A stretch of 64,000 nucleotides of DNA, taken from NCBI GenBank assembly GCA_963662945.1, contig OY759974.1:1280001-1344000 (forward strand), given 5' to 3'. The notes under the pieces are model-generated. The model saw only the letters and a list, made by a program, of their open reading frames with translations, did no database searches and was not told the origin of the DNA. Made by a program: the position numbers and the translations under genes. Shown here piece by piece: positions 23,528 through 43,382 of the stretch (position 1 is its first letter; each line of letters begins with the position of its first letter). The DNA is from Arcobacteraceae bacterium. Its GTDB lineage: Bacteria > Campylobacterota > Campylobacteria > Campylobacterales > Arcobacteraceae.

Positions 23528-23538
23528 AAGGAAGTGAA

Positions 23539-23832
23539 ATGAAGGATACAATACAATATACAAGATATGAATCTCCAGAGTTACAAAAGTGGAAACAATT
23601 ACCACAACTAACGCAGTTAGAAAAAATAGAAAGTTTAAGTCAAGATTTTAGAAATGAACTTAAAGTAATAAATGTAAAAGATCAAATGATTGAAGTAAAT
23701 GTTTATGTTCCAAAAGAACAAGTTTATCAGTTATTAGTAAATTATGAAAAATATTTAAGAGAGAAATTAGATAATATGCCTATTATTGTATTATTAAAGG
23801 AACGACTAGATGAAAACAAAAAAAGAAAATAA
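23539..23832 (+). CDS. Small hypothetical protein
   Basis: 97 aa, AAGGAAG RBS, overlaps start of RS2. Confidence 0.6.
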   Translation: MKDTIQYTRYESPELQKWKQLPQLTQLEKIESLSQDFRNELKVINVKDQMIEVNVYVPKEQVYQLLVNYEKYLREKLDNMPIIVLLKERLDENKKRK

Positions 23833-24928: not shown

Positions 24929-24937
24929 AGTATTTTA

Positions 24938-26350: not shown

Positions 26351-26353
26351 AAC

Positions 26354-27064: not shown

Positions 27065-27122
27065 CATTTCTTAATATTAGTTTAATAAATATTTTGTTAC
27101 AGTAGCCATAAAGGATTTGATT

Positions 27123-28166
27123 ATGAATGTTAGAGAATTACTACTCACTGAAGATACTCCAATTATACAAGCCTTAGATATTATTGCAAAAGGTGCTAAA
27201 AGTATTGCCTTAATAGTTGATACAAATAATAAATTATTGGGAACTTTAAATGATGGAGATATTAGAAGAGCCCTTTTAAATAGTTATGATTTACAACAGC
27301 CGATTAAAGATATTTATCAACAAAATCCTTGTGTTTGTACTATAAATGACACAAAAGAATTTATTATACAAAAAGCAATCAAAAATAAAGTATATCAAAT
27401 TCCAATAGTAGATAATAACTACAAATTAGTAGATCTTGAAGATTTAGCCACTCTACTCACAAATGTTAAAAGGAAGAATAGAGTTTTTTTAATGGCAGGA
27501 GGATTAGGAACTAGACTACGACCTTTAACTACAAATACACCTAAACCCCTTCTTGAAGTGGGGAATAAGCCTATTTTAGAAACGATAATTGAAAATTTTG
27601 CAAAATATGGATTTGTAAATATAACTATAAGTGTAAATTATAAAGCAAATATGATAAAGGATTATTTTGGTGATGGTAGTCGTTTTGGAGTTAGTATTGA
27701 CTATATAGAAGAAACAAAAAGATTAGGCACAGCAGGTGCACTTGGACTTATTGACAATAAACCTACAGAACCATTTTTTGTCATGAATGCAGATTTATTA
27801 ACAAATATTAATTTTACCCATTTACTAGATTTTCACTCTTTTGAAAATTCAATTGCTACAATGTGTGTTCGAGAATATGATTTTCAAGTACCTTTTGGAG
27901 TAGTTGAAACTGAAGATGGAAATATTGTATCAATTAAAGAAAAACCTGTACATAAATTTTTTGTCAATGCGGGTATTTATACTTTATCACCTCAAGTATT
28001 TCAATATATTCCAATTAACACATTTTATGATATGCCAACATTATTTGAAGATTTGATACAAAATCAACATAAAACAATTTCATTTCCTATTCATGAATAT
28101 TGGCTTGATATTGGGAGAATTGAAGAGTTTGAGAAAGCTAATAATGAATATGACGAGGTATTTTAA
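27123..28166 (+). CDS. ptmE: CBS-domain nucleotidyltransferase (PtmE/LgaF-type)
   Basis: DGDIRR CBS pair, MAGGLGTRLRPLT..PKP, WLDIG. Confidence 0.85.
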   Translation: MNVRELLLTEDTPIIQALDIIAKGAKSIALIVDTNNKLLGTLNDGDIRRALLNSYDLQQPIKDIYQQNPCVCTINDTKEFIIQKAIKNKVYQIPIVDNNYKLVDLEDLATLLTNVKRKNRVFLMAGGLGTRLRPLTTNTPKPLLEVGNKPILETIIENFAKYGFVNITISVNYKANMIKDYFGDGSRFGVSIDYIEETKRLGTAGALGLIDNKPTEPFFVMNADLLTNINFTHLLDFHSFENSIATMCVREYDFQVPFGVVETEDGNIVSIKEKPVHKFFVNAGIYTLSPQVFQYIPINTFYDMPTLFEDLIQNQHKTISFPIHEYWLDIGRIEEFEKANNEYDEVF

Positions 28167-29027
28167 TTGAATATCTTAATTATTGGGTATGGTTCAATTG
28201 GAAAACGTCATGAACGTATATTGTCAACAATGCAAGATAGTACTTATAGCATAGATATTGTTACCAAGCAAAATATTGAACAAAAAAATACCTTTACAAG
28301 CATATCACAAATAAAAAATTTAAATAGATATGATTATTTTATAATAGCAAATGAAACTTACAAACATTCTCTTACACTAAAAACTATCGATAAACTTGTC
28401 AATCACAAAATAATTTTAGTTGAAAAACCATTATTTAAAGATTATGAAAAATTTCAGCCAAAAAATAAAGTTTTGGTTGCCTACAACTTACGATTTCATC
28501 CTATAATAGAGTTCTTAAAACCATATAAATTTATCTTTTTCAATGCTATTGTAGGACAAGATTTAAAACAATGGAGAGATAGAAATTATATTAAAAACTA
28601 CAGTGCAAAAAAACAATACGGAGGTGGTGTACTCCGTGATTTAAGTCATGAAATTGATTATATCCAATATCTAAATGGTAAAATTAAGGATATTCACTCT
28701 ACCATTGATAAAAAAAGTAACTTAAACATAGATGTAGAAGACATTGTTATAGGTAATGGAAAAACAAGAAATGCTATTATAGGATTTTCTATGGATTATA
28801 TAAGTAAAATACCATTTAGACAAATTATAGCCCATACAAAAAATGAAACTTTTATTTGTGATTTTATTTCAAATTCAATTAATAATAAAAAATTAAAAGA
28901 TATAGATAGGGACTATACCTATAGAGAAATGCATAAAGCAATTTTAAACAATAACTTTGATAAAGTTTGTACTTATAAAGAAGGTTTAAAAACTATGAAA
29001 GTAATACAAGAAATAGAAAATGAGTAA
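28167..29027 (+). CDS. Gfo/Idh/MocA oxidoreductase (PtmF/ElaA-like)
   Basis: IGYGSIGKRH, VEKP, YNLRFHP, GGGVLRDLSHEID. Confidence 0.82.
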   Translation: MNILIIGYGSIGKRHERILSTMQDSTYSIDIVTKQNIEQKNTFTSISQIKNLNRYDYFIIANETYKHSLTLKTIDKLVNHKIILVEKPLFKDYEKFQPKNKVLVAYNLRFHPIIEFLKPYKFIFFNAIVGQDLKQWRDRNYIKNYSAKKQYGGGVLRDLSHEIDYIQYLNGKIKDIHSTIDKKSNLNIDVEDIVIGNGKTRNAIIGFSMDYISKIPFRQIIAHTKNETFICDFISNSINNKKLKDIDRDYTYREMHKAILNNNFDKVCTYKEGLKTMKVIQEIENE

Positions 29028-29721
29028 TATCTTATGTACAATATGTGCCAGAGGTGGTTCTAAAGGTGTTAAAAATAAAAACATTAAATTACTTAATGGA
29101 AAACCTCTTATTGCATATACAATAGAACAAGCTAGAACAACAAATCTTTTTGATCATATAGTTGTTAGTACAGATTCTGATAAAATTGCTAATATTGCAA
29201 GAGAATATGGAGCAGAAATATTTTTTCAAAGAGATGCGGAAATGGCAAGTGATACAGCAGGAAAGTTAGATGTAATTAAAGATGCTTTTATAAAAAGTGA
29301 GCAATACTATAAAAAACAATTTGAGTATCTTATAGATTTGGATGTAACATCACCATTAAGAGATGCATCAGACATTACTAATTCATTTCAACAATTTTTA
29401 GAAAATAAAAATGATAATCTTATAACTGCAATGCCTAGTAGAAGAAGTCCTTATTTTAATTTAGTAGAATTACATAATGGAAAGGTTGTTTTATCAAAGA
29501 ATTTAGACTGTAAAGTAGTACGTAGGCAAGATGCCCCAAAAAGTTACGATATGAATGCTTCTATATATATTTGGAAAAGGGATGTTATTTTAAATGAGAA
29601 TAAACTTTTTCTTGAGAATACTGGCTTATACGTAATGCCTGAAGAGCGATCTATTGATATAGATACTGAATTAGATTATAAATTTGTAGAGTTTTTAATG
29701 AGGGAAAAAAACAATGATTAA
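29020..29721 (+). CDS. neuA: CMP-nonulosonate synthetase (LegF/PtmB/NeuA)
   Basis: ARGGSKGVKNKN, TSPLR, RRQD, SIDID. Confidence 0.9.
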   Translation: MSNILCTICARGGSKGVKNKNIKLLNGKPLIAYTIEQARTTNLFDHIVVSTDSDKIANIAREYGAEIFFQRDAEMASDTAGKLDVIKDAFIKSEQYYKKQFEYLIDLDVTSPLRDASDITNSFQQFLENKNDNLITAMPSRRSPYFNLVELHNGKVVLSKNLDCKVVRRQDAPKSYDMNASIYIWKRDVILNENKLFLENTGLYVMPEERSIDIDTELDYKFVEFLMREKNND

Positions 29722-30484
29722 AGGACAAGTTGTCGTAATAACTGGCGGTGCTGGACTTATAGGAAAAGAATTTGTAAAGGCTGTAGTTCAAAATAATGGT
29801 ATAGCAATTATAGCAGATATAAATGAGCAAGTTGGAATAAAAACAAAAGATGATTTATCAAAAGAACTTCGCACTACACAAATTGACTTTGTACAATTAA
29901 ATATTACATCAAAACATTCTATAAATGAAGCTATACATATTATTTCTTCTAAATATACAAAAATTGATGCCCTAGTTAATAATGCTTATCCTAGAAATCA
30001 AAACTATGGTAACCATTTTTTTGATGTTGAATATGAAGATTTTATTGAAAACCTAGGTCTTAATTTAGGTGGCTATTTTACTTCCTCTCAACAGTTTGCC
30101 AAGTATTTTCAATTGCAAGGATATGGAAATATTATTAATATATCTTCAATTTATGGAGTAGTTGCTCCAAAGTTTGAAATATATAATCATACGCCGATGA
30201 CTATGCCTGTAGAATACGCAGCTATAAAGTCTGGACTTATTCACCTTACAAAATATATGGCAAAATATTTTAAAGGAATGAATATAAGAGTGAATGCACT
30301 AAGTCCTGGTGGAATTTTTGATAATCAACCTAAGCTTTTTTTAGAACAATATAAAAACAATTGTTTGACTAAAGGGATGCTTAATGCAAGTGACTTAAAA
30401 GGTACTTTAATCTATTTGCTAAGTGATATGAGTCAATATGTTAATGGACAAAATATTATTGTCGATGATGGTTTTAGTTTATAA
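29714..30484 (+). CDS. ptmA: SDR oxidoreductase (PtmA/ElaC-like)
   Basis: TGGAGLIG, NNAYPRN, SSIYG, YAAIK. Confidence 0.8.
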   Translation: MIKGQVVVITGGAGLIGKEFVKAVVQNNGIAIIADINEQVGIKTKDDLSKELRTTQIDFVQLNITSKHSINEAIHIISSKYTKIDALVNNAYPRNQNYGNHFFDVEYEDFIENLGLNLGGYFTSSQQFAKYFQLQGYGNIINISSIYGVVAPKFEIYNHTPMTMPVEYAAIKSGLIHLTKYMAKYFKGMNIRVNALSPGGIFDNQPKLFLEQYKNNCLTKGMLNASDLKGTLIYLLSDMSQYVNGQNIIVDDGFSL

Positions 30485-30493
30485 AGGAAAAAA

Positions 30494-31639
30494 ATGAGTA
30501 ATAAAAAAATTTTTTGGTGTAAAAATTGTTTAAATATGTCTACAAGACCTAGAATATCATTTGACAATAGAGGTTGGTGTAATGCTTGTCAATGGATGGA
30601 AGAAAAGAAAACTATAGATTGGACGCCAAGGGAAATAGAATTACAAACATTATTAAATAAATATCGTTCTAAAAATAGTAACTTTGACTGTATTGTTCCT
30701 GTAAGTGGAGGTAAAGATGGTTCTTATGTTGCACATCAATTAAAACACAAATATAATATGAATCCCTTAACAATAACTGTTAAACCTGCATTATCTCTAG
30801 AAATTGGTGATCAGAATTTATCGAACTTTATTCAATCAGGTTATAATCATATACATATTTCAACTAACCCTATCGTATTAGATCGATTAAATAAATATGG
30901 ATTTATAGAAAAAGGATTTCCATATTATGGTTGGCTTATTGCTATCATGACCGCTGTAATTAAAACAGCAGCAAATTTTAAAATCCCATTAATCTTCTAT
31001 GGAGAAGATGGTGAAATAGAATATGGTGGTTCTACAGAAAGTAAAAATAAAGCACTCTATGATATAGAGTATATGAAGAGGGTATATCTTGAAGGTGGTC
31101 ATGAAAAAGTATTTGATAGAATCAAACAAGATGGTGATATAAGTGATGCTGATTTAGCCTTTTTTCAATTTCCAACAACAGATGAAATTTCTGAAGTTGG
31201 ATTATCATTTACACATTGGTCATATTTTGAAGCTTGGGATTCTTATCGAAATTATGTTGTTGCAAAAGAGCATTGTGGTCTTATAGAAAAAGATGATGGT
31301 AACCATGATACTTTTACAAACTTTGCTCAAAATGACCAAGCTTTATATGCCCTTCATGCATATATGATGTATTTAAAATTTGGTTTTGGAAGAGCAACTC
31401 AAGATGCAGGAATAGAAATTAGAAGAGGTTCTATGTCAAGAGACCAAGCGATAAATCTTGTCAATATGTATGACAATGCTTATCCTTATGATTTAATAGA
31501 TACCTATTTAGAATATTACAAAATGTCAAAAGAAGAATTTGATGCCGTTCTTGATAAATATGCAAATACAGATTTATTTGACAAGATTGATGGTATTTGG
31601 CAACCAAAATTTACAGTGGGAGAAGAATTTAGTTTATGA
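30494..31639 (+). CDS. N-acetyl sugar amidotransferase (PseA/PtmG/WbuX family)
   Basis: CKNC..CNAC, SGGKDG PP-loop, KFGFGRAT. Confidence 0.88.
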   Translation: MSNKKIFWCKNCLNMSTRPRISFDNRGWCNACQWMEEKKTIDWTPREIELQTLLNKYRSKNSNFDCIVPVSGGKDGSYVAHQLKHKYNMNPLTITVKPALSLEIGDQNLSNFIQSGYNHIHISTNPIVLDRLNKYGFIEKGFPYYGWLIAIMTAVIKTAANFKIPLIFYGEDGEIEYGGSTESKNKALYDIEYMKRVYLEGGHEKVFDRIKQDGDISDADLAFFQFPTTDEISEVGLSFTHWSYFEAWDSYRNYVVAKEHCGLIEKDDGNHDTFTNFAQNDQALYALHAYMMYLKFGFGRATQDAGIEIRRGSMSRDQAINLVNMYDNAYPYDLIDTYLEYYKMSKEEFDAVLDKYANTDLFDKIDGIWQPKFTVGEEFSL

Positions 31640-32247
31640 AACTTGTAATTATTGATTATGGTATGGGAAATATAAAATCACTTATTAGTGCTTATAACTA
31701 TATCGGTGTTCACAATATCATTCTTTCAAATAATTATCAAGAAATTAAATCTGCAGATAAAATATTACTTCCTGGTGTTGGCTCTTTTTTTCAAGCAATG
31801 CAAAATATCAAGAATTTAGAACTTGACAAATATCTCGAAGAAATTGTACTTTCTGATAAAAAACCAATTTTAGGAATTTGTCTGGGGATGCAACTTTTAG
31901 GTTCAAGCAGTGAAGAAGATGGTTTTACAGAAGGATTAAATTTTATCGAAGCAAGCTGTAAAAAATTCAAACAAGCTAATTTAAAAGTACCGCATGTTGG
32001 TTTTAATCAAGTAAATATAAATAAAAACTCTAAATTGTTTTTAGAACTAGAAGACAAAAGTGATTTTTATTTTACCCATAGTTATAAAATGTCTACAAAA
32101 AAAGATATTAATGAATCAACTTGTGTATATGGAGATAATTTTGTTGCAGCCTTTGAATATGGTAATATTTTAGGTACACAATTTCATCCGGAGCTGAGTC
32201 AAACTAATGGCTTACAAATATTAAAAAACTTTATTGAGAAATTTTAA
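31636..32247 (+). CDS. HisH-like glutaminase (WbuY-like)
   Basis: DYGMGN, LPGVG, GICLGMQ, QFHPE. Confidence 0.88.
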   Translation: MKLVIIDYGMGNIKSLISAYNYIGVHNIILSNNYQEIKSADKILLPGVGSFFQAMQNIKNLELDKYLEEIVLSDKKPILGICLGMQLLGSSSEEDGFTEGLNFIEASCKKFKQANLKVPHVGFNQVNINKNSKLFLELEDKSDFYFTHSYKMSTKKDINESTCVYGDNFVAAFEYGNILGTQFHPELSQTNGLQILKNFIEKF

Positions 32248-33018
32248 ATGTTACGAAAAAGAATTATATTCTCACTCATTTATGAAAATGGTATTTTTAA
32301 TCAAAGTCGAAATTTTCGATTACAAAAAGTAGGAAATATTCAATGGCTAGAAAAAAACTATAAATTTCAAGAGATAGCTTTTTCATTAGATGAACTAATC
32401 GTTTTAAATGCATCCAAAAATAAAAAAAACATGCAAGAATTTGGTCAAACTTTAAGTGCATTAGTAAATGATGTTTTTATTCCTATAGCAGCTGGTGGTG
32501 GTATTAGAACAATTGAAGATGCACAATACCTATTTCAAAATGGTGCCGATAAATTAGTCATAAATACTATTCTTTATCAAGATCCAAACTTAGTAAAAGA
32601 ATTAGCTAAAATATATGGCTCTCAAAGCCTTGTTGCAAGTATTGATTATAAAATCATTGATAATTTACCAAAAGTATTTATTCATAATGGAACAGAACCA
32701 CTTGATATCTCTTTAAAAGAATATTTAGAATATATTCAAGAACTAAATATTGGTGAAATTTATTTGAACTCAATAGATAAGGATGGGACTGGATTTGGTT
32801 ATGATTTTGATACAATACAAAATATAAAAGATGTTATTGATGTTCCTCTAATTATTGCCGGTGGAGCAGGTAATGAAACTCACTTAAAAAGTGGACTAGA
32901 ACTAGAATATGTAAGTGCTGTTGCAACAGCTAATCTGTTTAACTTTATAGGAAACGGCTTACCTAATGCAAGAAAAAGTATTTTAAAAGAAGGGTTAAAT
33001 ATATCAAAATGGATGTAA
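32248..33018 (+). CDS. HisF-like barrel (WbuZ-like ammonia channel)
   Basis: GGGIR, GADK, SIDKDGTG.GYD, GGAG. Confidence 0.85.
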   Translation: MLRKRIIFSLIYENGIFNQSRNFRLQKVGNIQWLEKNYKFQEIAFSLDELIVLNASKNKKNMQEFGQTLSALVNDVFIPIAAGGGIRTIEDAQYLFQNGADKLVINTILYQDPNLVKELAKIYGSQSLVASIDYKIIDNLPKVFIHNGTEPLDISLKEYLEYIQELNIGEIYLNSIDKDGTGFGYDFDTIQNIKDVIDVPLIIAGGAGNETHLKSGLELEYVSAVATANLFNFIGNGLPNARKSILKEGLNISKWM

Positions 33019-33989
33019 AACAAACTACAGTATATGAATATGCATTAATAACAGATAAAATAGTATTTGCCGACGGTATCTCAAGAACTGGTAAAGCAAT
33101 GATTAGTAACCTATTACTTGGTTTTGACAAAATGTCAAGTGTACAATTTATTAATCCATTTGAACAACTTATGCCAATGTACATGCATAATAAAATTACA
33201 AAAGATGCGATGTCTGGGTTTCTACGTCTTTTTTTTAACGAAAATTTTTATAATTATAAGTTATCAAGAAATATAAATTTTAGATATGATGATTTAACAA
33301 GTATTTACAATACAAATAATCCCATAGAATTTCACAAAAACTTATCTAAAAAAGATGGTGATGCAATCATAAATGAACTACTAAATGAAACACTATATTT
33401 TCAATTTCAAACACATGACTTACTAACTCATTATTCAAAGTTTCTTGAATTAAATATAGATGCATATGTCATTGAATTACTAAGGAATCCTATTGATACT
33501 GTACATTCTTGGCATAAAAGAGGATGGGGTACACGATTTGATCAAGTAGATCCAAGAAGTGGTACAACATTATTTCAATATAAAAATAAAACTATTCCGC
33601 ACTATGCTATTGGGAATGAAGAATATTACTTAAAATTAAATCCTATGGAAAAATGTGTATTTATGCATAATTCCCTACAAAAAAAATCTATTTTTGAATA
33701 TAAAAAATTAACTGCTGAACAAAAAAATAAAATTTTACTTATTAAGTATGAAGATATGATTGATGATCCAAATCTTCAACTTAATAAAATATCAGAATTT
33801 TTAAATCTTAAAATAACTTCACACATGACAAAAATGATGAAAGATGCAAAAGTTCCAAGAATAATTAATACACAAGATAGAAATATTAAACTTGAAGAAA
33901 TTAAAAACAATGTTTCTCAAGATATTTATGATGATTTACTCAAATTAGCATATGAATATGAAACAAACTTTTACACCCTAAATCCGTAG
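33009..33989 (+). CDS. PAPS-dependent sulfotransferase-fold protein
   Basis: GISRTGK (5'-PSB-like), RNPIDTVHSW (3'-PB-like), KYED. Confidence 0.75.
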   Translation: MDVKQTTVYEYALITDKIVFADGISRTGKAMISNLLLGFDKMSSVQFINPFEQLMPMYMHNKITKDAMSGFLRLFFNENFYNYKLSRNINFRYDDLTSIYNTNNPIEFHKNLSKKDGDAIINELLNETLYFQFQTHDLLTHYSKFLELNIDAYVIELLRNPIDTVHSWHKRGWGTRFDQVDPRSGTTLFQYKNKTIPHYAIGNEEYYLKLNPMEKCVFMHNSLQKKSIFEYKKLTAEQKNKILLIKYEDMIDDPNLQLNKISEFLNLKITSHMTKMMKDAKVPRIINTQDRNIKLEEIKNNVSQDIYDDLLKLAYEYETNFYTLNP

Positions 33990-33997
33990 GAAACTAG

Positions 33998-34711
33998 ATG
34001 GATATTTATCTTTTACTTACTATTATAATTACGGCAGCTATACAATCTTTATTTGGTGTTGGAGTATTGCTTTTTGGTACTCCAATTCTCCTACTATTAA
34101 ATTATGAATTCTTTGATGCTTTAATAATACTCCTTCCCATATCAGCATCAATCAACTTAATGCAAGTTATTAAAGGCTATAAACAAATTGATTTTGATAT
34201 CTATAAACATATATTATTCATTTCAGTACCTTTTATTATTTTAACATTATATCTTCTTTCAAAATTCACTATACATATAACCGTATACATAGGCTTATTA
34301 CTAATGATTATTGCACTCAAAGAGTATGTAAGTGTTATACAAAATTTTATCAATAAATTATTATCATACAATAACTTTTTTTATGTAATTATGGGATTAG
34401 TTCATGGTATGACAAACTTAGGTGGGGCGCTGCTAACTGCCAAAATTTTTAATACTAACTTAGATAAATATCAAAAAAGAAGTACTATTGCGATATCGTA
34501 TATGACATTTGCTTTATTTCAAATAGTTACAATTTTACTTTTAACATATGAATATAATATTTTCAATCTTTTATTTATTTTAATTGGACTAAGTGTTTAT
34601 ATATTAGTAAATAAAATATTTTTTTATAAAATTACAAATAATAAATATGATAGACTATTTGCAATATTTTTATTCACATCTGGATTGACACTAACTTTAA
34701 AAGGATTATGA
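33998..34711 (+). CDS. TauE/SafE (TSUP) family permease
   Basis: Highly hydrophobic, QSLFGVG..FGTP and HGMTNLGG repeats. Confidence 0.72.
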   Translation: MDIYLLLTIIITAAIQSLFGVGVLLFGTPILLLLNYEFFDALIILLPISASINLMQVIKGYKQIDFDIYKHILFISVPFIILTLYLLSKFTIHITVYIGLLLMIIALKEYVSVIQNFINKLLSYNNFFYVIMGLVHGMTNLGGALLTAKIFNTNLDKYQKRSTIAISYMTFALFQIVTILLLTYEYNIFNLLFILIGLSVYILVNKIFFYKITNNKYDRLFAIFLFTSGLTLTLKGL

Positions 34712-35205
34712 TGGTAATTTGGTTAATTGGTATATCAGGAGCGGGCAAAACAACATTAGGGAATAAAATTCATAATCATTATGTAAAAAAAAATCAAAAA
34801 TCTTTTATCATTGATGGAGATATTGTAAGAAGTTTTTATAATAACGATTTAGGATACACAAAAGAAGATCGAATAGCAAATATAAAAAGAATAATGCTAT
34901 CAGCTTATGTTTTAGAAAAGAATGGTATTATCCCAATTGTATGTAACATCTCTCCTTTTGAAAATTTACGAAATTTTGCTAGAGAAAAATTTGAGAATTA
35001 CCAAGAAATATATTTAAAAAAAAATATACAAGATGCCAAAAGTAATGATGTTAAAGAGATATATAAAAATAATCTTCATAAAACAGATTTAGTTGGAATC
35101 GATATGGTTTTTGAAGAACCACAATATAGTAATTTAATTTTAGAAGTTGATAAAGAAACTGAAGAAGCGTCGTTTAATAAAATAATTTCACATTTAGAAA
35201 GTTAA
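34708..35205 (+). CDS. cysC: Adenylyl-sulfate kinase
   Basis: GISGAGKTT, DGDIVR, DLGYTKEDR..NI.R, FEEP. Confidence 0.85.
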   Translation: MMVIWLIGISGAGKTTLGNKIHNHYVKKNQKSFIIDGDIVRSFYNNDLGYTKEDRIANIKRIMLSAYVLEKNGIIPIVCNISPFENLRNFAREKFENYQEIYLKKNIQDAKSNDVKEIYKNNLHKTDLVGIDMVFEEPQYSNLILEVDKETEEASFNKIISHLES

Positions 35206-35211
35206 AATAGT

Positions 35212-36279
35212 ATGTCAGTAAAATATAATTTAAATGAAGAATCACTGCAAGATTGTATCAATATAGCTACAGGTTTATTTTATCCACTAACAGGATTTAT
35301 GTCATCAACAGATTATCATAATGTTGTTATAAATATGAAACTTAGCAACCAACAAATATGGACTATTCCTATTAGTTTAGATATAGACTATGCCACATAT
35401 ATGGAAGCTGTTGAATCTACAAAATTAGACCTTTTATTTGATAATAACTTAATTGGTTTTATGAAAATTGACGATTGCTATATTGTTGACCAAAAACAAG
35501 ATATAAAATCTATTTTTGGGACAGATGATCCTAATCATCCTGGTGTTTCAAAAGAATTATCAAGAGAAAAATATAGAGTAGGTGGAGAGATAACAATTAC
35601 CAATCAATCCATATTAAATGATTCATTAAACCCAAAAAAAACTAAAGCTTATTTTAAAAGTCAGAATTGGAAAACAATTGCTGGTTTTCAAACTCGAAAT
35701 CCTGTTCATAAAGCACATGAACATTTACAAAGGATAGCTCTTGATATCTGTGATGGATTATTTATAAATCCACTAGTAGGATGGAAAAAAGTAGGTGACT
35801 TTAGTGAACAAGCAGTTATAGATGGTTATAAAGCTATGATTACAGAATACTATGCTGGTTTAAATGTTTACTTTGAAAGTTTAAAAACACCTATGCGATA
35901 TGCTGGTCCAAGAGAAGCTATTTTTCATGCACTTATAAGAAGAAATTTAGGCTGTACCCATTTTATAATTGGACGAGATCATGCCGGCGTTGGAGATTAT
36001 TATGGAAAATATGAAGCACAAGAACTTGCTAGAGAAATTCTTAAAGACAATGATTTAGGTATTGAACTTCTTCTTCTCAGTGAACCATTTTATTGTCATA
36101 AATGTGACCAAATTGTTTCAGATAAAACTTGCCATCACGATGACCAATATATAGAAAAAATAAGTGGTACAAAGATCAGAGCAATGCTTGCTGAAAATAA
36201 AAGACCAAAAGAATTGTATATGAGAAAAGAAATAGCTGATGCTATTATAAAATTAAATGATGATAAATTTATAAGATAA
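35212..36279 (+). CDS. sat: Sulfate adenylyltransferase (Sat-type)
   Basis: FQTRNPVHKAHE, MRYAGPREA, GRDHAG, ISGTKIR. Confidence 0.93.
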   Translation: MSVKYNLNEESLQDCINIATGLFYPLTGFMSSTDYHNVVINMKLSNQQIWTIPISLDIDYATYMEAVESTKLDLLFDNNLIGFMKIDDCYIVDQKQDIKSIFGTDDPNHPGVSKELSREKYRVGGEITITNQSILNDSLNPKKTKAYFKSQNWKTIAGFQTRNPVHKAHEHLQRIALDICDGLFINPLVGWKKVGDFSEQAVIDGYKAMITEYYAGLNVYFESLKTPMRYAGPREAIFHALIRRNLGCTHFIIGRDHAGVGDYYGKYEAQELAREILKDNDLGIELLLLSEPFYCHKCDQIVSDKTCHHDDQYIEKISGTKIRAMLAENKRPKELYMRKEIADAIIKLNDDKFIR

Positions 36280-36292
36280 TAAGAGGTAAAAA

Positions 36293-37273
36293 ATGAAAAA
36301 ACTAATTGCTACAGTAGGTCCATCTTTATTGAAAACACTACCATTAAATACAATACATGATGAAAAAAATATTTATAGAATAAATGGTGCCCATGGGACA
36401 ATAGAAGATATTGAGAATTATATCTTAGAAATAAGAGCTCAAGAAAAAGATGCTAATATATTAATGGACTTGCCAGGAAATAAAGTACGAACAGCAAATT
36501 TAAATGGTGGCTTTATTGATATCAAAGAAAACGAAGAGTTTTCTCTCTTATTTAGTCAAATGAATTACAAAGAATTTTTTAAGCATATTAAGGTAGGAGA
36601 TACTGTTTGGGCAAATGATTCAATCTTTAAATTTACTGTAAAAAGCATTCATATTGAAGCAATGGAGATTAAATTTATTTCACATTCTACAGGAAGATTA
36701 CTAAATAATAAAGGAATGCATATCCGAGGTATTCATGAACATATTCCCTTTCTATTTGATAAAGATAAAGAACTCATTAAATTAGCAAATAAATATAACT
36801 TAGCTTATGTAGGATTGTCTTTTGTTCGTACACGAAGTGATGTTTTAGAAGCAAAACAACTCATTAACGAAAATATCAAAATAATTTCAAAAGTAGAAAC
36901 AATTGCAGCAGTTGAGAATTTAATAGATATTCTAAAAGAAGTTGAATATATTTTAATTGATAGAGGTGATTTATCTACGGAAATAGGATTAGAAAAAGTA
37001 CCCGCTTACCAAAAATATATTATTGATAAAGCCATTTTTTATGGTACTAAAGTATTTTTAGCAACACAATTTTTAAAAAGTATGGAACACAATCCGATTC
37101 CAACAATTCCTGAAGTTATAGATATGTATAACACATTAAAAAGTGGAATTTATGGTATTCAACTTTCAGAAGAAACAGCCGTTGGAAAATATCCTAAAGA
37201 ATGTTTAAATACTATAAATAAACTATTAGAAGAAATAGATAATGAGAGACTTACCAACAAAATAACATGTTAA
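36293..37273 (+). CDS. Pyruvate kinase-like protein lacking the C-terminal domain
   Basis: ATVGP, RINGAHG, SFVR, SKVE, DRGDL, ATQ, LSEETAVGKYP; only 326 aa. Confidence 0.82.
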   Translation: MKKLIATVGPSLLKTLPLNTIHDEKNIYRINGAHGTIEDIENYILEIRAQEKDANILMDLPGNKVRTANLNGGFIDIKENEEFSLLFSQMNYKEFFKHIKVGDTVWANDSIFKFTVKSIHIEAMEIKFISHSTGRLLNNKGMHIRGIHEHIPFLFDKDKELIKLANKYNLAYVGLSFVRTRSDVLEAKQLINENIKIISKVETIAAVENLIDILKEVEYILIDRGDLSTEIGLEKVPAYQKYIIDKAIFYGTKVFLATQFLKSMEHNPIPTIPEVIDMYNTLKSGIYGIQLSEETAVGKYPKECLNTINKLLEEIDNERLTNKITC

Positions 37274-38016
37274 ATACAATTGATATAAATCTCATCAAAA
37301 ATATTGCAAGTGATGCCGGAAAAGCTATTATGGATATTTATGTTAAAAATTTTGCAATAAGTTATAAAATGGATAATTCTCCTTTAACAGAAGCAGATAT
37401 ACTAGCAAATGAAATTATATGTAATCAACTTCAATACTATTATCCTTCAATTCCCATACTTTCAGAAGAGAATAAAGAAATACCCTATGTAGAAAGAAAA
37501 GATTGGGAATATTATTGGTGTATTGATCCAATTGATGGAACAAAAGAATTTATAAAAAAGAATGGTGAATTTACTGTAAATATTGCACTTATTCATAAAA
37601 ATCGTCCTATATTAGGAGTAGTATTATCTCCAACAACAAAAGATATTTTTTATGCAAAAAAGGGCTTTGGAGCATTTCAAAATAATACTAAACTACCAAT
37701 TGATTTAAACAAAAAAGAATTTGTGATTGTTGCTAGTAAATCTCACTTAACTAATACAACTACAGAATATATAGACTCTATAAAAACGTCCAAATTCAAA
37801 AAACTAATCTCTATTGGAAGCTCATTGAAACTATGCCTTGTCGCAAGTGGATTAGCTGATATATACCCAAGATTTGCTCCTACAAAAGAATGGGATACAG
37901 CTGCTGCTCATGCAATTTTATTAGAATCTGGAAAAAATATATTTCAAGCTAATAGTAATGATGAACTTGAATATAATAAAAAAAATCTTACTAATCCAAG
38001 CTTTATTGCAAAATAG
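37267..38016 (+). CDS. cysQ: 3'(2'),5'-bisphosphate nucleotidase
   Basis: SPLTEAD, LSEE, DPIDGTKEF, GSSLK, EWDTAA. Confidence 0.93.
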   Translation: MLNTIDINLIKNIASDAGKAIMDIYVKNFAISYKMDNSPLTEADILANEIICNQLQYYYPSIPILSEENKEIPYVERKDWEYYWCIDPIDGTKEFIKKNGEFTVNIALIHKNRPILGVVLSPTTKDIFYAKKGFGAFQNNTKLPIDLNKKEFVIVASKSHLTNTTTEYIDSIKTSKFKKLISIGSSLKLCLVASGLADIYPRFAPTKEWDTAAAHAILLESGKNIFQANSNDELEYNKKNLTNPSFIAK

Positions 38017-38017: not shown

Positions 38018-39973
38018 TTACTTAACAGCTTTCTTCAAATCTTTAAATAATTCAATAACCGCGATTGACCACAGTTTTGCTACATCATTAATTACTTTTT
38101 TGGAATGTAAATCTTTTTGTTTTAAATTTAAAATAAAATTTACATAAATATCTGCCAATGCAGTAAAATGTAAAAAGATATCAGAAAATACATGATGAGA
38201 ATCATTTTTTAATATTTCTAATATCCAAATCATAATATCTAATTTATGTTGTAAAAAGTCATCTTTTGATTTATATTCTTTAGTGTTAAATCTTTTTGCT
38301 CTATTTAATATTGTATTAATTACTTGAATATCTTTTTGAAATTCTAAATTATCTACAACTACAGAAATATTATTTATTGCTTCAATGCTAGAAAACTTTA
38401 TATCATCAAATTTTTGAGCCTTTTTATTAAATTCTTCATAATTTAATGGTTCTAATCCTTCTATGTATGCTCCGTCTGAAAGATTATATGCTTTATAGTT
38501 CAAATGAGTTAAATCTCTCATCGCCATTTTATAATGATCGATAAAAATTATTAACTCTCTATTTGTTTTAACTGTTTCTCTAAAATTTCCCTTTACTGTA
38601 AGAACATCTGAATTTGAAACTCTATTTTTATCTTCGGATTCTTTTAAAGTATGCTTAATTATATTCTTACAATCTGTAGCATAATTTTGTCCTGTTTCCT
38701 GATGAAATGCGGCATCATTTCCTATAAGATATAATTCTTCTGCACCTAAATGTACAGATACTAAAAATGCATAAGTACCTACATTAGGAACAGACCCTAA
38801 ATAACCAAGACTCTCAACTAAGGGTAAAACTTGTGCAAAATAATAATGCTTGTCTCCAATTATATCAAATACTCCAGAATCTTGTTGTGTTAAAAATATA
38901 ATAGCAGTGTTATTTAAAAAATTAGGATCTTGTGTAGTTAAATGTAAAGCAATTCTTGGCGAAGGATCAATTGAGAATATTATATCTGGTATAATTTTAT
39001 GCTTTTCTAATTTTGAAACCATTGTATCTACAGAAACAATAATAAATTTATTCTGATTTTCAACTATCCACTCTATATAACTATCAAGAGAGGGACCAGC
39101 ACTAATCATCAATAATTTTTTCCCTGTTAATACTTTTTTTTCATATGCTAATGGTACACTAATAAATTTTTCTTTCTTTTTGATAAAATCAACAATTTTA
39201 TGTAAATTATCTACTACCATTTTATAAGGAAATGTTATTACAGAGTTTTCAGCAAAAAAATCAACTAATTCATCCTTGATATATGCATTTGAAGTAACTA
39301 AGTTGTAATATTTTACATTATAGTTCATATATTGGTGATGAGAAGAAAAATCATCATATACAATTTGTCTTTTGTTTTTATCTTGCCCTACGCTTAAAAA
39401 TAAAGTTCTATTCCCTTTTGCAAACTCTGAATAGTCTGTTGTAAATAAAGATAATCTAAAAATTTCTAACTCTGGTTCTATTATTAATGTAGTGTACGAT
39501 TGAATTTTGGAATCAATTTCTTGAATATGAAAACCTAATCCTGTTCCAATAAAAACAAATTTATATATTTTCTGATACTCCACATTTTCTAAATCAACAT
39601 TTTCATTGATATAATTAACTATAGGCATTACATCTTTATAAATCTCACCTGATACTAATTTATTTGTATAAGGATTCTTTCTTAATAAATCTAAAGAGTT
39701 ATTATTGGTAAAATCTACATATTTTTTTCTTTCTTCAGCATCTTTATAACTATCTGTAAAATAATACATTCCATTATTTTCATGATTTAATATATCAAAA
39801 TAACCATCTACATATTCTAAAGTATATTGCTCTTTCTTATTTCCTACTGCAATTTCATGAGACAAGTTCTTTACATCTTCATATATATCATAAAAGTTAT
39901 CCTTTAAAAAAGATAAGTTTTTATGATATATACTAACTGCCAACTTATTCAACTCTTCTACATTTACATTCAT
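38018..39973 (-). CDS. maf: Motility accessory factor (Maf) flagellin glycosyltransferase
   Basis: GTGLGFHI, IEPELEIF, SAGPSL, PNVG, LIGND; adjacent to flagellins. Confidence 0.85.
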   Translation of the reverse strand: MNVNVEELNKLAVSIYHKNLSFLKDNFYDIYEDVKNLSHEIAVGNKKEQYTLEYVDGYFDILNHENNGMYYFTDSYKDAEERKKYVDFTNNNSLDLLRKNPYTNKLVSGEIYKDVMPIVNYINENVDLENVEYQKIYKFVFIGTGLGFHIQEIDSKIQSYTTLIIEPELEIFRLSLFTTDYSEFAKGNRTLFLSVGQDKNKRQIVYDDFSSHHQYMNYNVKYYNLVTSNAYIKDELVDFFAENSVITFPYKMVVDNLHKIVDFIKKKEKFISVPLAYEKKVLTGKKLLMISAGPSLDSYIEWIVENQNKFIIVSVDTMVSKLEKHKIIPDIIFSIDPSPRIALHLTTQDPNFLNNTAIIFLTQQDSGVFDIIGDKHYYFAQVLPLVESLGYLGSVPNVGTYAFLVSVHLGAEELYLIGNDAAFHQETGQNYATDCKNIIKHTLKESEDKNRVSNSDVLTVKGNFRETVKTNRELIIFIDHYKMAMRDLTHLNYKAYNLSDGAYIEGLEPLNYEEFNKKAQKFDDIKFSSIEAINNISVVVDNLEFQKDIQVINTILNRAKRFNTKEYKSKDDFLQHKLDIMIWILEILKNDSHHVFSDIFLHFTALADIYVNFILNLKQKDLHSKKVINDVAKLWSIAVIELFKDLKKAVK

Positions 39974-40063: not shown

Positions 40064-40945
40064 CTATTGAAGTAATCTTAAAACATTTTGACTTGTAGCA
40101 TTAGCTTGACTTATTGCATAAGTACCTGCTTGTGCTATAATGTTTTGTTTATTAAAGTTTGCAGATTCTTGTGCATAATCAACATCTCTAATAACTGACT
40201 CAGCAGCAAGAGTATTTGTAACTTGAGTCATCATATTTCTAATACTTGACTGTAATTGATTTTGAGTAGAACCAATATCTGCTCTCCATCCATTTAATTG
40301 TGTTAATGCACTATCTAGAGCTGCAATATATGTTCTTGCAATCGCTTGAGCTGATGCTGCTGTTGTAGTCGCAGCTGCAAGAAATGCACTTCCTGCTTTA
40401 ATCATTAGTGCTGACATTTTGTTTAATCCAGTTGTATTAGCTTGAATACCAGAACCTAGTGTAATTAAATCAGCTGATGTTGAACCCATTTGGAATGTTA
40501 ATTTTACTGATGCACTTGCACCTGCAGCACTTCTTTGTAATAATGTTGTACCATTATATGTTGTTTGTTGTGCAATATTATTAACTTGTTCCAATAGTTT
40601 TTTAATATCTTTACCAATTGCTTCAATACCATCTAATGATGTTGTAGCTGTCGATGCCTGAATTAATTTTTGTTTTACGATATCTAAAATATTAGATGTT
40701 TCTGCCATCGCTTTATCAGCAATTTGTGTTAATGAAACAGCTGAATTACCATTTGCAACAGCTTGATTCAATGAACTAGCTTGTGTTCTTAGTTTATCAG
40801 CAATTGCTAAACCAGATGCATCATCTGATGCTTTATTAATTCTATAACCTGTAGATAATTTTTCTAGTGAACTAGATATATTATTATTTGTATTTGCATT
40901 CGCTTCTTGAGCTATTAGTGAGCTCACATTTGTATTTATTCTCAT
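40064..40945 (-). CDS. Flagellin 1
   Basis: MRINTN, LSTGYRINKASDDASGLAI, IRDVDYAQE, VLRLLQ. Confidence 0.97.
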   Translation of the reverse strand: MRINTNVSSLIAQEANANTNNNISSSLEKLSTGYRINKASDDASGLAIADKLRTQASSLNQAVANGNSAVSLTQIADKAMAETSNILDIVKQKLIQASTATTSLDGIEAIGKDIKKLLEQVNNIAQQTTYNGTTLLQRSAAGASASVKLTFQMGSTSADLITLGSGIQANTTGLNKMSALMIKAGSAFLAAATTTAASAQAIARTYIAALDSALTQLNGWRADIGSTQNQLQSSIRNMMTQVTNTLAAESVIRDVDYAQESANFNKQNIIAQAGTYAISQANATSQNVLRLLQ

Positions 40946-41065
40946 AATTTATCCTTTTAAATTTATGACACATTGTAATCAAATTGATTACGACGAAAAA
41001 CATTCTCATTCTATCTCTATCCTGAGCATAGGGACTTTCACCCTTCGGTATCAATTGATACCTAT
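40706..41065. repeat. 360-bp exact direct repeat, copy 1 (flagellin 5' end plus 120-bp leader)
   Basis: Identical by eye to 41785-42144 (offset 1079). Confidence 0.9.
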
Positions 41066-41117
41066 AAATTAAATCTCAAAAATAAAATCAATAACCTCAT
41101 TTTTAAAATCTAATCAT

Positions 41118-41143
41118 AAAGCTACACAATTCAGTGTAGCTTT
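41118..41143 (-). terminator. Hairpin/terminator after flagellin 2
   Basis: aaagctacac-aattca-gtgtagcttt. Confidence 0.7.
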
Positions 41144-41154
41144 ACTTTAGAAAA

Positions 41155-42024
41155 CTATTGAAGTAATCTTAAAACATTTTGACTTGTAGCATTAGCTTGA
41201 CTTATTGCATAAGTACCTGCTTGTGCTATAATGTTTTGTTTATTAAAGTTTGCAGATTCTTGTGCATAATCAACATCTCTAATAACTGACTCAGCAGCAA
41301 GAGTATTTGTAACTTGAGTCATCATATTTCTAATGCTTGACTCTAATTGATTTTGAGTAGAACCAACGTCTGCTCTCCATCCATTTAATTGTGTTAATGC
41401 ACTATCAATTTTAGCAATGAATGTTCTTGCGTATGTTTGCCCAGAAGTTGCTCCCATATTTGCAAAACCACTTAAACCAGCTAATTTTAATGCTGACATA
41501 CCATTCAATCCTGTTGTATTTGCATGTACACCAGATGCTAATGAAATTAAGTCAGCTGATGTTGCACCCATTTGGAATGTTAACTTCGCAGCAACTACAC
41601 CAGCACTAGCACCTTCAAGTAATTGAATACCATTGTATGTAGTTTGAGATGCTATATTATCAATTTGATCTAACAATTTATTAATATCTTTACCAATTGC
41701 TTCAATACCATCTGCAGATGTAGTAGCAGTTGCAGCTTGAATTAATTTTTGTTTTACGATATCTAAAATATTAGATGTTTCTGACATCGCTTTATCAGCA
41801 ATTTGTGTTAATGAAACAGCTGAATTACCATTTGCAACAGCTTGATTCAATGAACTAGCTTGTGTTCTTAGTTTATCAGCAATTGCTAAACCAGATGCAT
41901 CATCTGATGCTTTATTAATTCTATAACCTGTAGATAATTTTTCTAGTGAACTAGATATATTATTATTTGTATTTGCATTCGCTTCTTGAGCTATTAGTGA
42001 GCTCACATTTGTATTTATTCTCAT
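41155..42024 (-). CDS. Flagellin 2
   Basis: Same conserved termini, distinct central region. Confidence 0.97.
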   Translation of the reverse strand: MRINTNVSSLIAQEANANTNNNISSSLEKLSTGYRINKASDDASGLAIADKLRTQASSLNQAVANGNSAVSLTQIADKAMSETSNILDIVKQKLIQAATATTSADGIEAIGKDINKLLDQIDNIASQTTYNGIQLLEGASAGVVAAKLTFQMGATSADLISLASGVHANTTGLNGMSALKLAGLSGFANMGATSGQTYARTFIAKIDSALTQLNGWRADVGSTQNQLESSIRNMMTQVTNTLAAESVIRDVDYAQESANFNKQNIIAQAGTYAISQANATSQNVLRLLQ

Positions 42025-42144
42025 AATTTATCCTTTTAAATTTATGACACATTGTAATCAAATTGATTACGACGAAAAACATTCTCATTCTATCTCTATC
42101 CTGAGCATAGGGACTTTCACCCTTCGGTATCAATTGATACCTAT
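41785..42144. repeat. 360-bp exact direct repeat, copy 2
   Basis: Identical to 40706-41065. Confidence 0.9.
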
Positions 42145-42182
42145 TATAATAAAATTATTCCGTAACAATTCTTAAAATTAGT

Positions 42183-42383
42183 TTAATTTAAAGTTTCTTC
42201 TAATTTTTTTATTGTTTCTATAGTTTTAATATTACTATTAACACGTTTTTGCATTGCATGTTTCTTAATATGTTTCGCAAGAATTTTTTTATACTTCATA
42301 TAATTTCTTGAATCTATTTCATATCCACACAATTTCTTTTGAATTTTTAAAATATCACTAGGTATAGAACTCATATTTTCCAT
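42183..42383 (-). CDS. Small basic hypothetical protein (66 aa)
   Basis: GGAGGG RBS before ATG 42383 (MENMSSIP...). Confidence 0.65.
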   Translation of the reverse strand: MENMSSIPSDILKIQKKLCGYEIDSRNYMKYKKILAKHIKKHAMQKRVNSNIKTIETIKKLEETLN

Positions 42384-42452
42384 TTTACCCTCCAAGATAT
42401 TAAAATTATTACATAACATTTCTTAAATTTAGATTAATTTTAAGAAAGTTAT

Positions 42453-42485
42453 AAAAAAACCTAAGCTATTACACTTAGGTTTTTT
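42453..42485 (-). terminator. Intrinsic terminator after flagellin 3
   Basis: aaaaaacctaag-ctattaca-cttaggtttttt. Confidence 0.8.
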
Positions 42486-42500
42486 ATATACTAATAAAAT

Positions 42501-43382
42501 CTACTGTAATAATCTTAAAACATTTTGTTGTACATTATTAGCTTGACTTATTGCATAAGTACCTGCTTGAGATATTATATTTTGTTTATTAAAATTTGCA
42601 GATTCTTGTGCATAATCAACATCTCTAATAACTGACTCAGCAGCTTTTGTATTAGTTACTTGAGTCATCATATTTCTAATACTTGACTCTAATTGATTTT
42701 GAGTAGAACCAATATCTGCTCTCCATCCATTTAATTGTGTTAATGCACTATCTATTGATGAAATATATGCTCTTGCAATCGCTTGAGCTGATGCTGCTGT
42801 TGTAGTCGCAGCTGCAAGAAATGCACTTCCTGCTTTAATCATTAGTGCTGACATTTTGTTTAATCCAGTTGTATTAGCTTGTACTCCTGAACCTAATGTA
42901 ATTAAATCAGCTGAAGTAGTACCCATTTGGAATGTTAATTTTACTGATGCACTTGCACCAGCTGCACTTCTTTGTAGCAAAGAAATCCCATTATACGTAG
43001 TTTGTGAAGCTATATTATTAACTTGTTCCAATAGTTTTTTAATATCTTTACCAATTGCTTCAATACCATCTAATGATGTTGTAGCTGTCGATGCCTGAAT
43101 TAATTTTTGTTTTACGATATCTAAAATATTAGATGTTTCTGCCATCGCTTTATCAGCAATTTGAAGCAATGAAACAGCTGAATTACCATTTGCAACAGCT
43201 TGATTTAATCCACTTGCTTGTGTTCTTAGTTTATCAGCAATTGATAAACCAGATGCATCATCTGATGCTTTATTTATTTTAAGACCAGTAGATAACTTTT
43301 CTAAAGAATTAGAAAGAGTAACATTTGTTTGTGCATTTGCTTCAAGTGCAGTAAGTGAAGAAACATTTGTATTGATTCTCAT
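42501..43382 (-). CDS. Flagellin 3
   Basis: Flagellin N- and C-terminal helical domains. Confidence 0.97.
   Translation of the reverse strand: MRINTNVSSLTALEANAQTNVTLSNSLEKLSTGLKINKASDDASGLSIADKLRTQASGLNQAVANGNSAVSLLQIADKAMAETSNILDIVKQKLIQASTATTSLDGIEAIGKDIKKLLEQVNNIASQTTYNGISLLQRSAAGASASVKLTFQMGTTSADLITLGSGVQANTTGLNKMSALMIKAGSAFLAAATTTAASAQAIARAYISSIDSALTQLNGWRADIGSTQNQLESSIRNMMTQVTNTKAAESVIRDVDYAQESANFNKQNIISQAGTYAISQANNVQQNVLRLLQ

Follow-up and report, generated by a model that had tools for sequence, protein, structure and literature searches.

A candidate sulfation unit at the end of a nonulosonate operon in an Arcobacteraceae flagellin glycosylation island

Six tightly packed genes in an Arcobacteraceae bacterium appear to form a self-contained unit for making and using 3'-phosphoadenosine 5'-phosphosulfate (PAPS), a donor of sulfate groups, placed at the end of a legionaminic-type nonulosonate operon within a flagellin glycosylation island. 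The genes lie in a stretch of 64,000 nucleotides, hereafter the window (G000:C1:1280001-1344000), where G000 denotes the genome under study, a single 2.50 Mb contig of about 28% G+C. In order, they encode a PAPS-type sulfotransferase, a TSUP/TauE-family membrane protein, the adenosine 5'-phosphosulfate (APS) kinase CysC, the ATP sulfurylase Sat, a truncated pyruvate kinase, and the nucleotidase CysQ. The adjoining sulfotransferase is the one consumer that can be seen for the PAPS produced by the unit, and a dedicated, non-assimilatory use of that PAPS is close to certain. On balance, and with modest confidence, we favor the view that the cell makes a legionaminic-type sugar carrying sulfate at O-4 or O-8 and attaches it to flagellin; the sulfate, its acceptor, and the flagellin destination are all things that we infer from sequence. 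Our broader proposal is held more tentatively: the sulfotransferase family may be a dedicated nonulosonate O-sulfotransferase, carried in a horizontally mobile "sulfo-legionaminic acid" cassette that extends from Arcobacteraceae to Bacteroidota and candidate phyla, with PAPS synthesis driven by phosphoenolpyruvate (PEP) via a pyruvate kinase coupled, in many organisms by fusion, to ATP sulfurylase, and with the cassette here plugged into a flagellin island.

Results

A six-gene unit whose order recurs elsewhere

The six open reading frames (ORFs) occupy 33009-38016 on the + strand (Table 1), and their presence, spacing, and Pfam families agree with the packed block described in the original prediction. 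Counting from the WbuZ-like gene that precedes them (ending at 33018), the intervals are -10, +8, -4, +6, +13, and -7 nt, the first being the overlap of the sulfotransferase start with the WbuZ-like stop. A single nucleotide separates the end of CysQ from the convergent Maf gene, behind which lie three flagellin genes. A promoter and terminator scan found no strong + strand terminator-like site inside 33009-38016, and its 123 promoter-like sites, set against a shuffle mean of 129.5, show no enrichment. Nor does G+C content mark the unit as foreign (0.265 for the module, 0.279 for the island, 0.289 for the genome).

The block is more than a chance grouping, because the order sulfotransferase-TauE-CysC-Sat-pyruvate kinase-CysQ is repeated in several metagenome contigs. 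We refer to fetched loci, which carry sulfotransferase homologues or comparison genes, by L-numbers, and to genomes by G-numbers. The complete order is found in L016, L018, L019, L022, and L039, with protein identities of 43-76%, although L022 nearly duplicates L039; the same order in L017 is interrupted by the end of the contig.

A distant member of the sulfotransferase fold

Curated NCBIfam and Pfam cut-offs served throughout as thresholds for family membership. By this measure the first protein of the unit, P0001, belongs to PF00685, scores below the cut-off of PF13469 (24.5 bits against 27), and matches no NCBIfam model. The family is small: from a collection of 5.8 billion clusters, 1393 candidates were scored and 49 proteins reached E <= 0.001, with identities of 48% or more, the closest being P0005 at 77% and P0006 at 72%. 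Seven of the 49 come with a source name, which for six is "hypothetical protein" and for none indicates a function. Across 25 aligned sequences, D22-G23-x-x-R26-x-G28-K29, H136, and R159-x-P161-x-x-T164-x-x-S167 are invariant. By position in the sequence rather than by superposition, we take these to be the two PAPS-binding elements—the 5'-phosphosulfate loop and the 3'-phosphate motif—and, in H136, the catalytic base; on that footing all three elements are present.

Structure prediction is consistent with this assignment. The AlphaFold2 model (predicted local distance difference test 87.3; predicted template modeling (TM) score 0.84) has 39 Foldseek matches in the PDB at E <= 0.001, with a best E of 6e-7, and all those listed have the PAPS sulfotransferase fold, at TM-scores of 0.3-0.58 and sequence identities of 10-15%. 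Tyrosylprotein sulfotransferases, CurM ST, and mycobacterial Stf9 lead the list, and a profile search of PDB sequences gave weak sulfotransferase matches (best E 4.5e-4). Judged from the model, P0001 is a distant member of the sulfotransferase fold, and from its model and motifs it looks functional. Cytoplasmic action is to be expected because its start is not signal peptide-like. We propose that it serves as a nonulosonate O-sulfotransferase.

A PAPS supply with a single visible consumer

The activation enzymes differ in how firmly their families can be assigned. Both curated score and motifs identify Sat as a Sat-type ATP sulfurylase: it lies above the NF003166 cut-off, and the columns QTRNP, H166-x-x-H169, and R255-D-H-A-G259, presumably the ATP sulfurylase motifs QTRNP, H-x-x-H, and GRDHAG, are invariant or nearly so in 12 aligned sequences. 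CysQ likewise exceeds its curated equivalog cut-off. CysC has the Pfam APS kinase domain (cut-off 21.1 bits) and a GISGAGKT P-loop visible in the translation, and the adjoining Sat suggests APS as its substrate. The TSUP gene, whose product we propose as the sulfate importer, stands directly 3' of the sulfotransferase in 12 of 64 loci, those whose downstream sequence runs to 900 nt or more.

The original prediction noted that the window encodes no PAPS/APS reductase or sulfite reductase, and indeed no such domain turned up in a scan of 67 ORFs from the window, each 100 aa or longer. The observation extends to the genome, which is 99.99% complete on its one contig: PF01507, to which APS/PAPS reductases and CysD belong, has zero matches genome-wide, in a search whose control was positive in 14 of 14 genomes. 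It is because no PF01507 protein is encoded that PAPS can be said to be made without assimilatory use, and a role for the module as the organism's assimilatory pathway, considered as a candidate, is rejected on the same result. Of 61 genomes, 50 have a PF01507 match at E <= 0.001, and G000 belongs to the 11 that lack one. Strong CysD/CysH matches are found in many congeners, some of which additionally possess a canonical CysC of about 240 bits on PF01583, as against 114 here. The one APS kinase match in the genome is the window CysC, and the single matches to PF00685 and to PF13469 are the same sulfotransferase gene. With the only CysC and the only sulfotransferase of the genome both in the unit, the dedicated circuit that had been predicted gains support. 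The prediction would have fallen had these been the only assimilatory sat and cysC copies; neither the lack of PF01507 nor the two Sat genes of the genome bears that out. The second ATP sulfurylase (L004:9698-11808, G000:C1 about 2482700-2484800) lies far away, beside a DHH/DHHA2 (family II pyrophosphatase-like) protein.

A pyruvate kinase with a proposed part in PAPS synthesis

The pyruvate kinase-like gene, which the original prediction listed and left unexplained, can now be assigned to the PAPS-making part. Its product matches PF00224 only (residues 3-304), has no PK_C domain, and falls below the pyruvate kinase equivalog cut-off (TIGR01064, 251.5 against 306.4). Its catalytic columns are kept: R29, N31, H34, D59, G62, R66, K200, E202, D223-R-G-D226, T258, and E294-T295. 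Aligned with 3t05, 2e28, and 19 other pyruvate kinases, it preserves R-x-N-x-x-H, D..G..R, S-K-x-E, D-R-G-D-L, A-T-Q..S-M, P-T..E, and E-T-A-x-G, which we take to be the catalytic residues and the metal or PEP ligands; it also has a lysine at the position where K+-independent pyruvate kinases carry one. The gene is an extra paralogue, a full-length pyruvate kinase of 473 aa being encoded elsewhere in the genome.

In three fetched loci a pyruvate kinase barrel, PUA_2, and the ATP-sulfurylase domain are fused in one protein of 726-734 aa (L012:10908-13094, L083:10984-13161, L085:11492-13693). A search with the L083 fusion scored 8000 candidates, of which 3381 reached E <= 0.001; each of the 120 best matches carries the three domains, and one of them has an APS kinase domain as well. 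Two empty tags aside, the source names shown are "sulfate adenylyltransferase", "ATP sulfurylase", or "pyruvate kinase". Because such fusions are common elsewhere, we read the pyruvate kinase as part of PAPS synthesis, where it most likely spends PEP on converting the ADP that CysC gives off back to ATP. Service to nonulosonate synthesis, for example in supplying PEP to NeuB, became less likely as an explanation once the Sat fusions were seen. A complex prediction for Sat with the pyruvate kinase-like protein scored 0.00 against a mark of 0.32, which gives no verdict and is used neither way. A literature search covering titles and the openings of abstracts found no paper on a coupling of pyruvate kinase to ATP sulfurylase.

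The sulfotransferase travels with nonulosonate genes

What the sulfotransferase acts on may be judged by the company that its homologues keep. Seven genome loci, distant relatives at 24-36% identity, and 80 metagenome loci were fetched, and all their ORFs were compared with the window proteins (BLASTP, 1e-8, at least 50% coverage); neighbors were counted in the 30 loci where the homologue is flanked on both sides by 5 kb or more. A CMP-nonulosonate synthetase is near in 26/30, followed by WbuZ (25/30), WbuX, HisH, and PtmA (24/30 each), PtmE (23/30), PtmF (21/30), CysC (20/30), NeuB and NeuC (16/30 each), pyruvate kinase (14/30, fusions being counted as Sat), Sat (12/30), and TauE and CysQ (9/30 each). 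The gene directly upstream is WbuZ in 15 loci, PtmA in nine, WbuX in seven, and HisH in two, together 33 of the 65 with enough upstream DNA. Named hosts are highly varied and include Aquirufa (a Bacteroidota isolate), Leptospira ilyithenensis, an Omnitrophota metagenome-assembled genome (MAG), and Methanosarcinales MAGs; the two archaeal loci show no nonulosonate genes. Going by these neighborhoods, the conserved partner of the family is legionaminic-type nonulosonate biosynthesis together with amidino formation, not the flagellum, and a nonulosonate is the probable acceptor. The earlier suggestion that the glycan was "possibly a nonulosonate" is thereby strengthened, the family lying inside legionaminic-type clusters in 26 of 30 well-flanked loci.

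L016 and the window agree in gene order across 15 genes, beginning with NeuB and ending with CysQ, at 42-80% identity. Between NeuB-NeuC and PtmE this collinearity is interrupted by a cassette of about 9 kb (18100-27064) with radical S-adenosylmethionine (SAM), transketolase, and heptose-type genes, which looks like an insertion into the legionaminic cassette. In a quick maximum-likelihood tree the window sulfotransferase falls in a clade of 13 rows (Shimodaira-Hasegawa-like approximate likelihood ratio support 96), eight of which have an adjoining Sat and two a CysC with TauE and pyruvate kinase, the remaining three being too short to be informative.

The flagellin island and its congeners

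The island spans about 30 kb, from 13039 to 43382, with housekeeping genes on either side (Table 1). It has the features of a Maf-dependent flagellin island, with Maf beside the flagellins and a LegC/NeuB/NeuC/CMP-synthetase set, and it contains no Wzx, Wzy, or export gene between those limits. Maf is the single PF01973 match in the genome. The gene order at 27117-30484 is matched in L016.

Table 1. The six genes of the candidate sulfation unit and the other annotated features of the island. Scores are in bits, with the cut-off after "vs" or in brackets.
Feature	Coordinates	Strand	Evidence
PAPS-type sulfotransferase (P0001), small unnamed family	33009-33989	+	PF00685 35.2 vs 22
TSUP/TauE-family membrane protein	33998-34711	+	PF01925 51.9 vs 32.6
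APS kinase CysC, short form (P0173)	34708-35205	+	PF01583 114.3
ATP sulfurylase Sat, PUA_2 + catalytic domain	35212-36279	+	Pfam 121.8 and 268.9; NF003166 422.6 vs 387
Pyruvate kinase, A + B domains, without C-terminal domain (P0002)	36293-37273	+	PF00224 200.3
CysQ, 3'(2'),5'-bisphosphate nucleotidase	37267-38016	+	Inositol_P 177.5; TIGR01331 281.1 vs 228.8
4,6-dehydratase-like protein, LegC-family aminotransferase, NeuD/PglD-type acetyltransferase, NeuB-type synthase, NeuC-type hydrolyzing 2-epimerase	13039-18084	+	Pfam, NCBIfam; TIGR04181 (LegC family) 569.5 vs 420; TIGR03569 517.3 vs 399.65; TIGR03568 493.3 vs 235.9
PtmE-like CBS nucleotidyltransferase, PtmF-like GFO oxidoreductase, CMP-nonulosonate synthetase, PtmA-like SDR (short-chain dehydrogenase/reductase)	27117-30484	+	Pfam, NCBIfam; NF050062 PtmA 285.6 (<350); NF006619 374.7 (>255); TIGR03584 PseF 157.2 (<205.7)
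WbuX-type N-acetyl sugar amidotransferase, HisH-like protein, WbuZ/HisF-like protein; putative acetamidino formation	30494-33018	+	NCBIfam; TIGR03573 347.6 vs 203.2; TIGR01855 219.3 vs 105.4; TIGR03572 217.7 (<299.7)
Maf-family flagellin nonulosonate glycosyltransferase	38018-39973	-	PF01973 84.9; PF20157 43.5
Three tandem flagellins, 293, 289, 293 aa	40064-43382	-	Flagellin_N + Flagellin_C each

The syntenic site in four congeners (G008, G009, G013, and G020) holds PseB/PseI-type genes with WbuX/HisH/WbuZ in each, and the sulfation unit is in none of these four islands. Flanking genes are 79-93% identical (G008, G013) and flagellins 68-76% (G008, G013, G020), and the window Maf shares 47-52% identity with the Mafs of the syntenic islands. 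From the Pse-type content of the congeners without a sulfation unit, and from that Maf identity, the island appears to be a replaceable cassette site in which Maf changes with the sugar; we propose that in this variable island the cassette has taken the place of pseudaminic-type content.

Some further features of the region and its counterparts deserve mention. Identical hairpin-forming stretches run across the flagellin genes (40116-43268, e.g. at 40813, 41892, and 43250) and are repeated coding sequence; these repeats raise the count of terminator-like sites to 18, against a shuffle mean of 3.9. In the congener islands (L113-L119), Maf genes stand as a tandem pair in G013 and the flagellin genes of G008 number five; two stop codons occur within the Maf match of G006. 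A YeeE/YedE-type sulfur transporter (PF04143; 54036-55094) and a dnaA-dnaN-gyrB group (58228-63104) lie 16-25 kb downstream of the island.

Alternative explanations

The computational tests all point the way of the original prediction, and none contradicts it. Several observations nevertheless weigh against our preferred reading, an O-sulfated legionaminic-type sugar on flagellin. Sulfate on any molecule is here a prediction from genes. CysC stays below the NCBIfam APS kinase cut-offs (TIGR00455, 125.9 against 138.7) and scores about equally on a subfamily model, NF004041 (114.3 against a cut-off of 127). Two SulP-family transporters are encoded elsewhere in the genome, so that sulfate import need not depend on the TSUP protein. 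The sulfotransferase was not found in 400 other species genomes of the order, except for one match at 24% identity, nor in 60 relatives, a scarcity that fits horizontal acquisition. The neighbor counts are not independent, since the loci include identical or near-identical members (L029/L030, L062/L063, L091/L093/L095, L031/L032, and L022/L023/L039). Other observations touch the destination, the acceptor, or the transferred group, and bear on the alternatives in turn.

The flagellin destination is plausible and rests on context in one genome. Instead, the unit could make PAPS and the sulfated legionaminic-type sugar could go to lipooligosaccharide, capsule, or another surface glycan. Neither Maf nor a flagellin gene lies near the homologue in any of the 30 well-flanked loci (0/30 for each), and flagellar use is seen in this species only; all these homologous cassettes are in polysaccharide-type loci, with Wzx flippases, glycosyltransferases of families GT1 and GT2, ABC/Wzt transporters, and Capsule_synth proteins as neighbors, and asparagine synthases besides. 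The genome also holds a second nonulosonate cluster, of Pse type, with PseB and PseG, in a polysaccharide locus, and because this cluster exists the sugar used by Maf is assigned by proximity. Yet the island has no flippase, polymerase, or export gene and abuts the only Maf of the genome and the flagellins, and the polysaccharide locus has a Pse-type pathway of its own, so that on the evidence from this genome we consider a surface-glycan destination unlikely. For the sulfated flagellin glycan as originally predicted, the island context, with the only Maf, the flagellins, and no polysaccharide export gene, speaks in favor; the homologous cassettes elsewhere are in polysaccharide loci. A search for PF06002 sialyltransferases found no match in this genome and none in the control genomes either, and hence says nothing on the question. 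The second cluster (L125:1-19864, G000:C1:682000-701863) encodes PseB, PseC-like, PseF-like, PseG, and a NeuB-family synthase, and nearby genes specify an ABC transporter, UDP-glucose dehydrogenases, methyltransferases, and one protein each of the ATP-grasp and radical SAM types.

The acceptor, too, could differ. The heptose-type pathway at 18100-27064 is a second sugar pathway within the island that could supply one, and in L086, a distant locus, a homologue is accompanied by transketolase and kinase genes resembling those of the island. A flagellin Tyr, Ser, or Thr side chain would be another target, given that the best Foldseek matches are protein-tyrosine sulfotransferases. The TM-scores to these are, however, only about 0.5, much like those to small-molecule and glycan sulfotransferases, and members of the family are found in loci that have no flagellin gene. 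Heptose-type genes rarely accompany the homologues, as against 26 of 30 for the CMP-nonulosonate synthetase. A heptose-type or side-chain acceptor is, in our judgment, improbable.

A third alternative changes the group transferred. The CysC-like kinase and the transferase could handle a donor that is PAPS-like without being PAPS, for example 3'-phospho-CDP-phosphoramidate, as in the O-methyl-phosphoramidate pathway of the Campylobacter jejuni capsule. PMC11800397 describes Cj1415-1418 of C. jejuni as making CDP-phosphoramidate 3'-phosphate. Genes like Cj1415-1418 occur, in place of Sat, in nine of 80 homologue loci (L008, L009, L027, L031, L032, L046, L047, L048, and L079), which are interleaved with Sat-linked loci on the tree, L026 and L027 being sisters. 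The set of glutamine-kinase-like protein (NF004508), C26 hydrolase (NF045546), and cytidylyltransferase is present in L009, L027, and L031, and CysC-like genes of such methyl-phosphoramidate-type loci exceed the NF004041 cut-off below which the window CysC falls. In some sister loci, then, the transferase family may have switched to a PAPS-like phosphoramidate donor. In the window island, by contrast, neither NF004508, NF045546, nor a cytidylyltransferase beside a CysC-like kinase is found, and the 13-row clade is without a phosphoramidate-type locus. Sulfate is the likely group in the window because a Sat and a CysQ above their cut-offs and TauE share one operon, and we regard phosphoramidate transfer here as very improbable.

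That the unit is ordinary assimilatory machinery, set by chance beside a flagellar island, is scarcely credible: Sat and CysC do perform the first steps of assimilation as well, and one NIR_SIR-family protein is encoded elsewhere in the genome, but a virtually complete one-contig genome without PF01507, an operon shared with a sulfotransferase and CysQ, a cassette that moves with nonulosonate genes in other phyla, and the CysD/CysH with higher-scoring canonical CysC of sulfate-assimilating congeners all speak against it.

Proposed mechanism and significance

We envisage a route in six steps to the sulfated legionaminic-type sugar. Sulfate would enter the cell, possibly via the TSUP protein, and Sat would convert ATP and sulfate to APS, which CysC would phosphorylate to PAPS; both assignments are at the level of family. 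The truncated pyruvate kinase, on the analogy of the fusions, would use PEP to turn the ADP from CysC back to ATP, pulling an unfavorable pathway forward and clearing inhibitory ADP. The cytoplasmic sulfotransferase would then transfer sulfate to a hydroxyl of the legionaminic-type sugar, which probably bears an acetamidino group. In legionaminic acid, O-4 and O-8 are the only free positions. Sulfate might be received by the free sugar, by the CMP-sugar, or by the sugar once it is bound to flagellin. CysQ would destroy the by-product 3'-phosphoadenosine 5'-phosphate, and Maf would attach the sugar to Ser/Thr of the three flagellins before export, in keeping with PMC4065374, which places Maf action ahead of flagellin export. 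In other phyla the same biosynthetic cassette would serve polysaccharide loci.

Nonulosonates on flagella and capsules shape motility and recognition by phage and the immune system, and sulfate would add a strong fixed charge. If the proposal holds, prokaryotes would gain their first example of a sulfated nonulosonate, and bacterial flagellins their first glycan with a sulfate ester. It would put a name to an enzyme family for nonulosonate sulfation that is unannotated in public data, and would offer natural comparators with and without the unit within one genus. PEP-driven PAPS synthesis would be a way not yet described, and may help enzymatic PAPS production. A full-text search, which left most subscription journals uncovered, found no report of a sulfated legionaminic or pseudaminic acid, of a flagellin sulfate ester, or of a sulfotransferase in a flagellin glycosylation island; in PMC3542563, sulfotransferases are placed in O-chain islands, not the flagellar one.

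Relation to known systems

The flagellin locus of Campylobacter jejuni and C. coli, with its legionaminic ptm/leg genes, Maf family, and acetamidino derivatives, offers the nearest template for the island. Both share a LegC aminotransferase, NeuB and NeuC types, PtmE-, PtmF-, and PtmA-like proteins, a CMP-sugar synthetase, an amidotransferase, and Maf beside tandem flagellins, whereas the present island has in addition a sulfation unit and a radical-SAM/transketolase cassette; we know of no PAPS-making genes or sulfotransferase in the Campylobacter locus.

Dedicated PAPS supply joined to a sulfotransferase for one product is familiar from NodP/NodQ/NodH of Sinorhizobium meliloti and RaxP/RaxQ/RaxST of Xanthomonas. 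Like these, the present unit is a private copy of sulfate activation beside a specific sulfotransferase, apart from assimilation. The Nod and Rax systems differ in using CysD/CysN-type sulfurylases, in contrast to a Sat type with a separate short CysC, pyruvate kinase, CysQ, and TSUP protein, and their acceptors are a lipochitooligosaccharide and a peptide tyrosine, respectively. Coupling of the PAPS steps by fusion or operon also recalls the fused Sat-CysC (PAPS synthase) and CysN-CysC proteins (NF004040, NF004035); unlike in those, the coupling extends to pyruvate kinase, which is a separate protein in the window and part of a fusion in L012, L083, and L085.

Among motility filaments, the original prediction held that sulfated glycans are known on archaellins and unusual on bacterial flagellins. 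This accords with PMC11239922, which reports sulfated N-glycans on the archaellins of Halobacterium salinarum, and with the lack of any bacterial flagellin sulfate ester in our search. The resemblance is to a filament with sulfated sugars, predicted in our case; the archaeal glycans are N-linked, dolichol-built, and contain sulfated hexuronic acids and no nonulosonate, and the filament is not homologous to the flagellum. The type B flagellin glycan of Clostridium difficile is closer in being a bacterial flagellin O-glycan with a sulfur oxyanion, again predicted here. In PMC5207246, however, it is described as having a sulfonated peptidylamido sugar, without nonulosonate and without a glycosulfotransferase among the locus genes. 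Set against these systems, the private-PAPS logic is that of Nod and Rax, and the type of island is that of Campylobacter.

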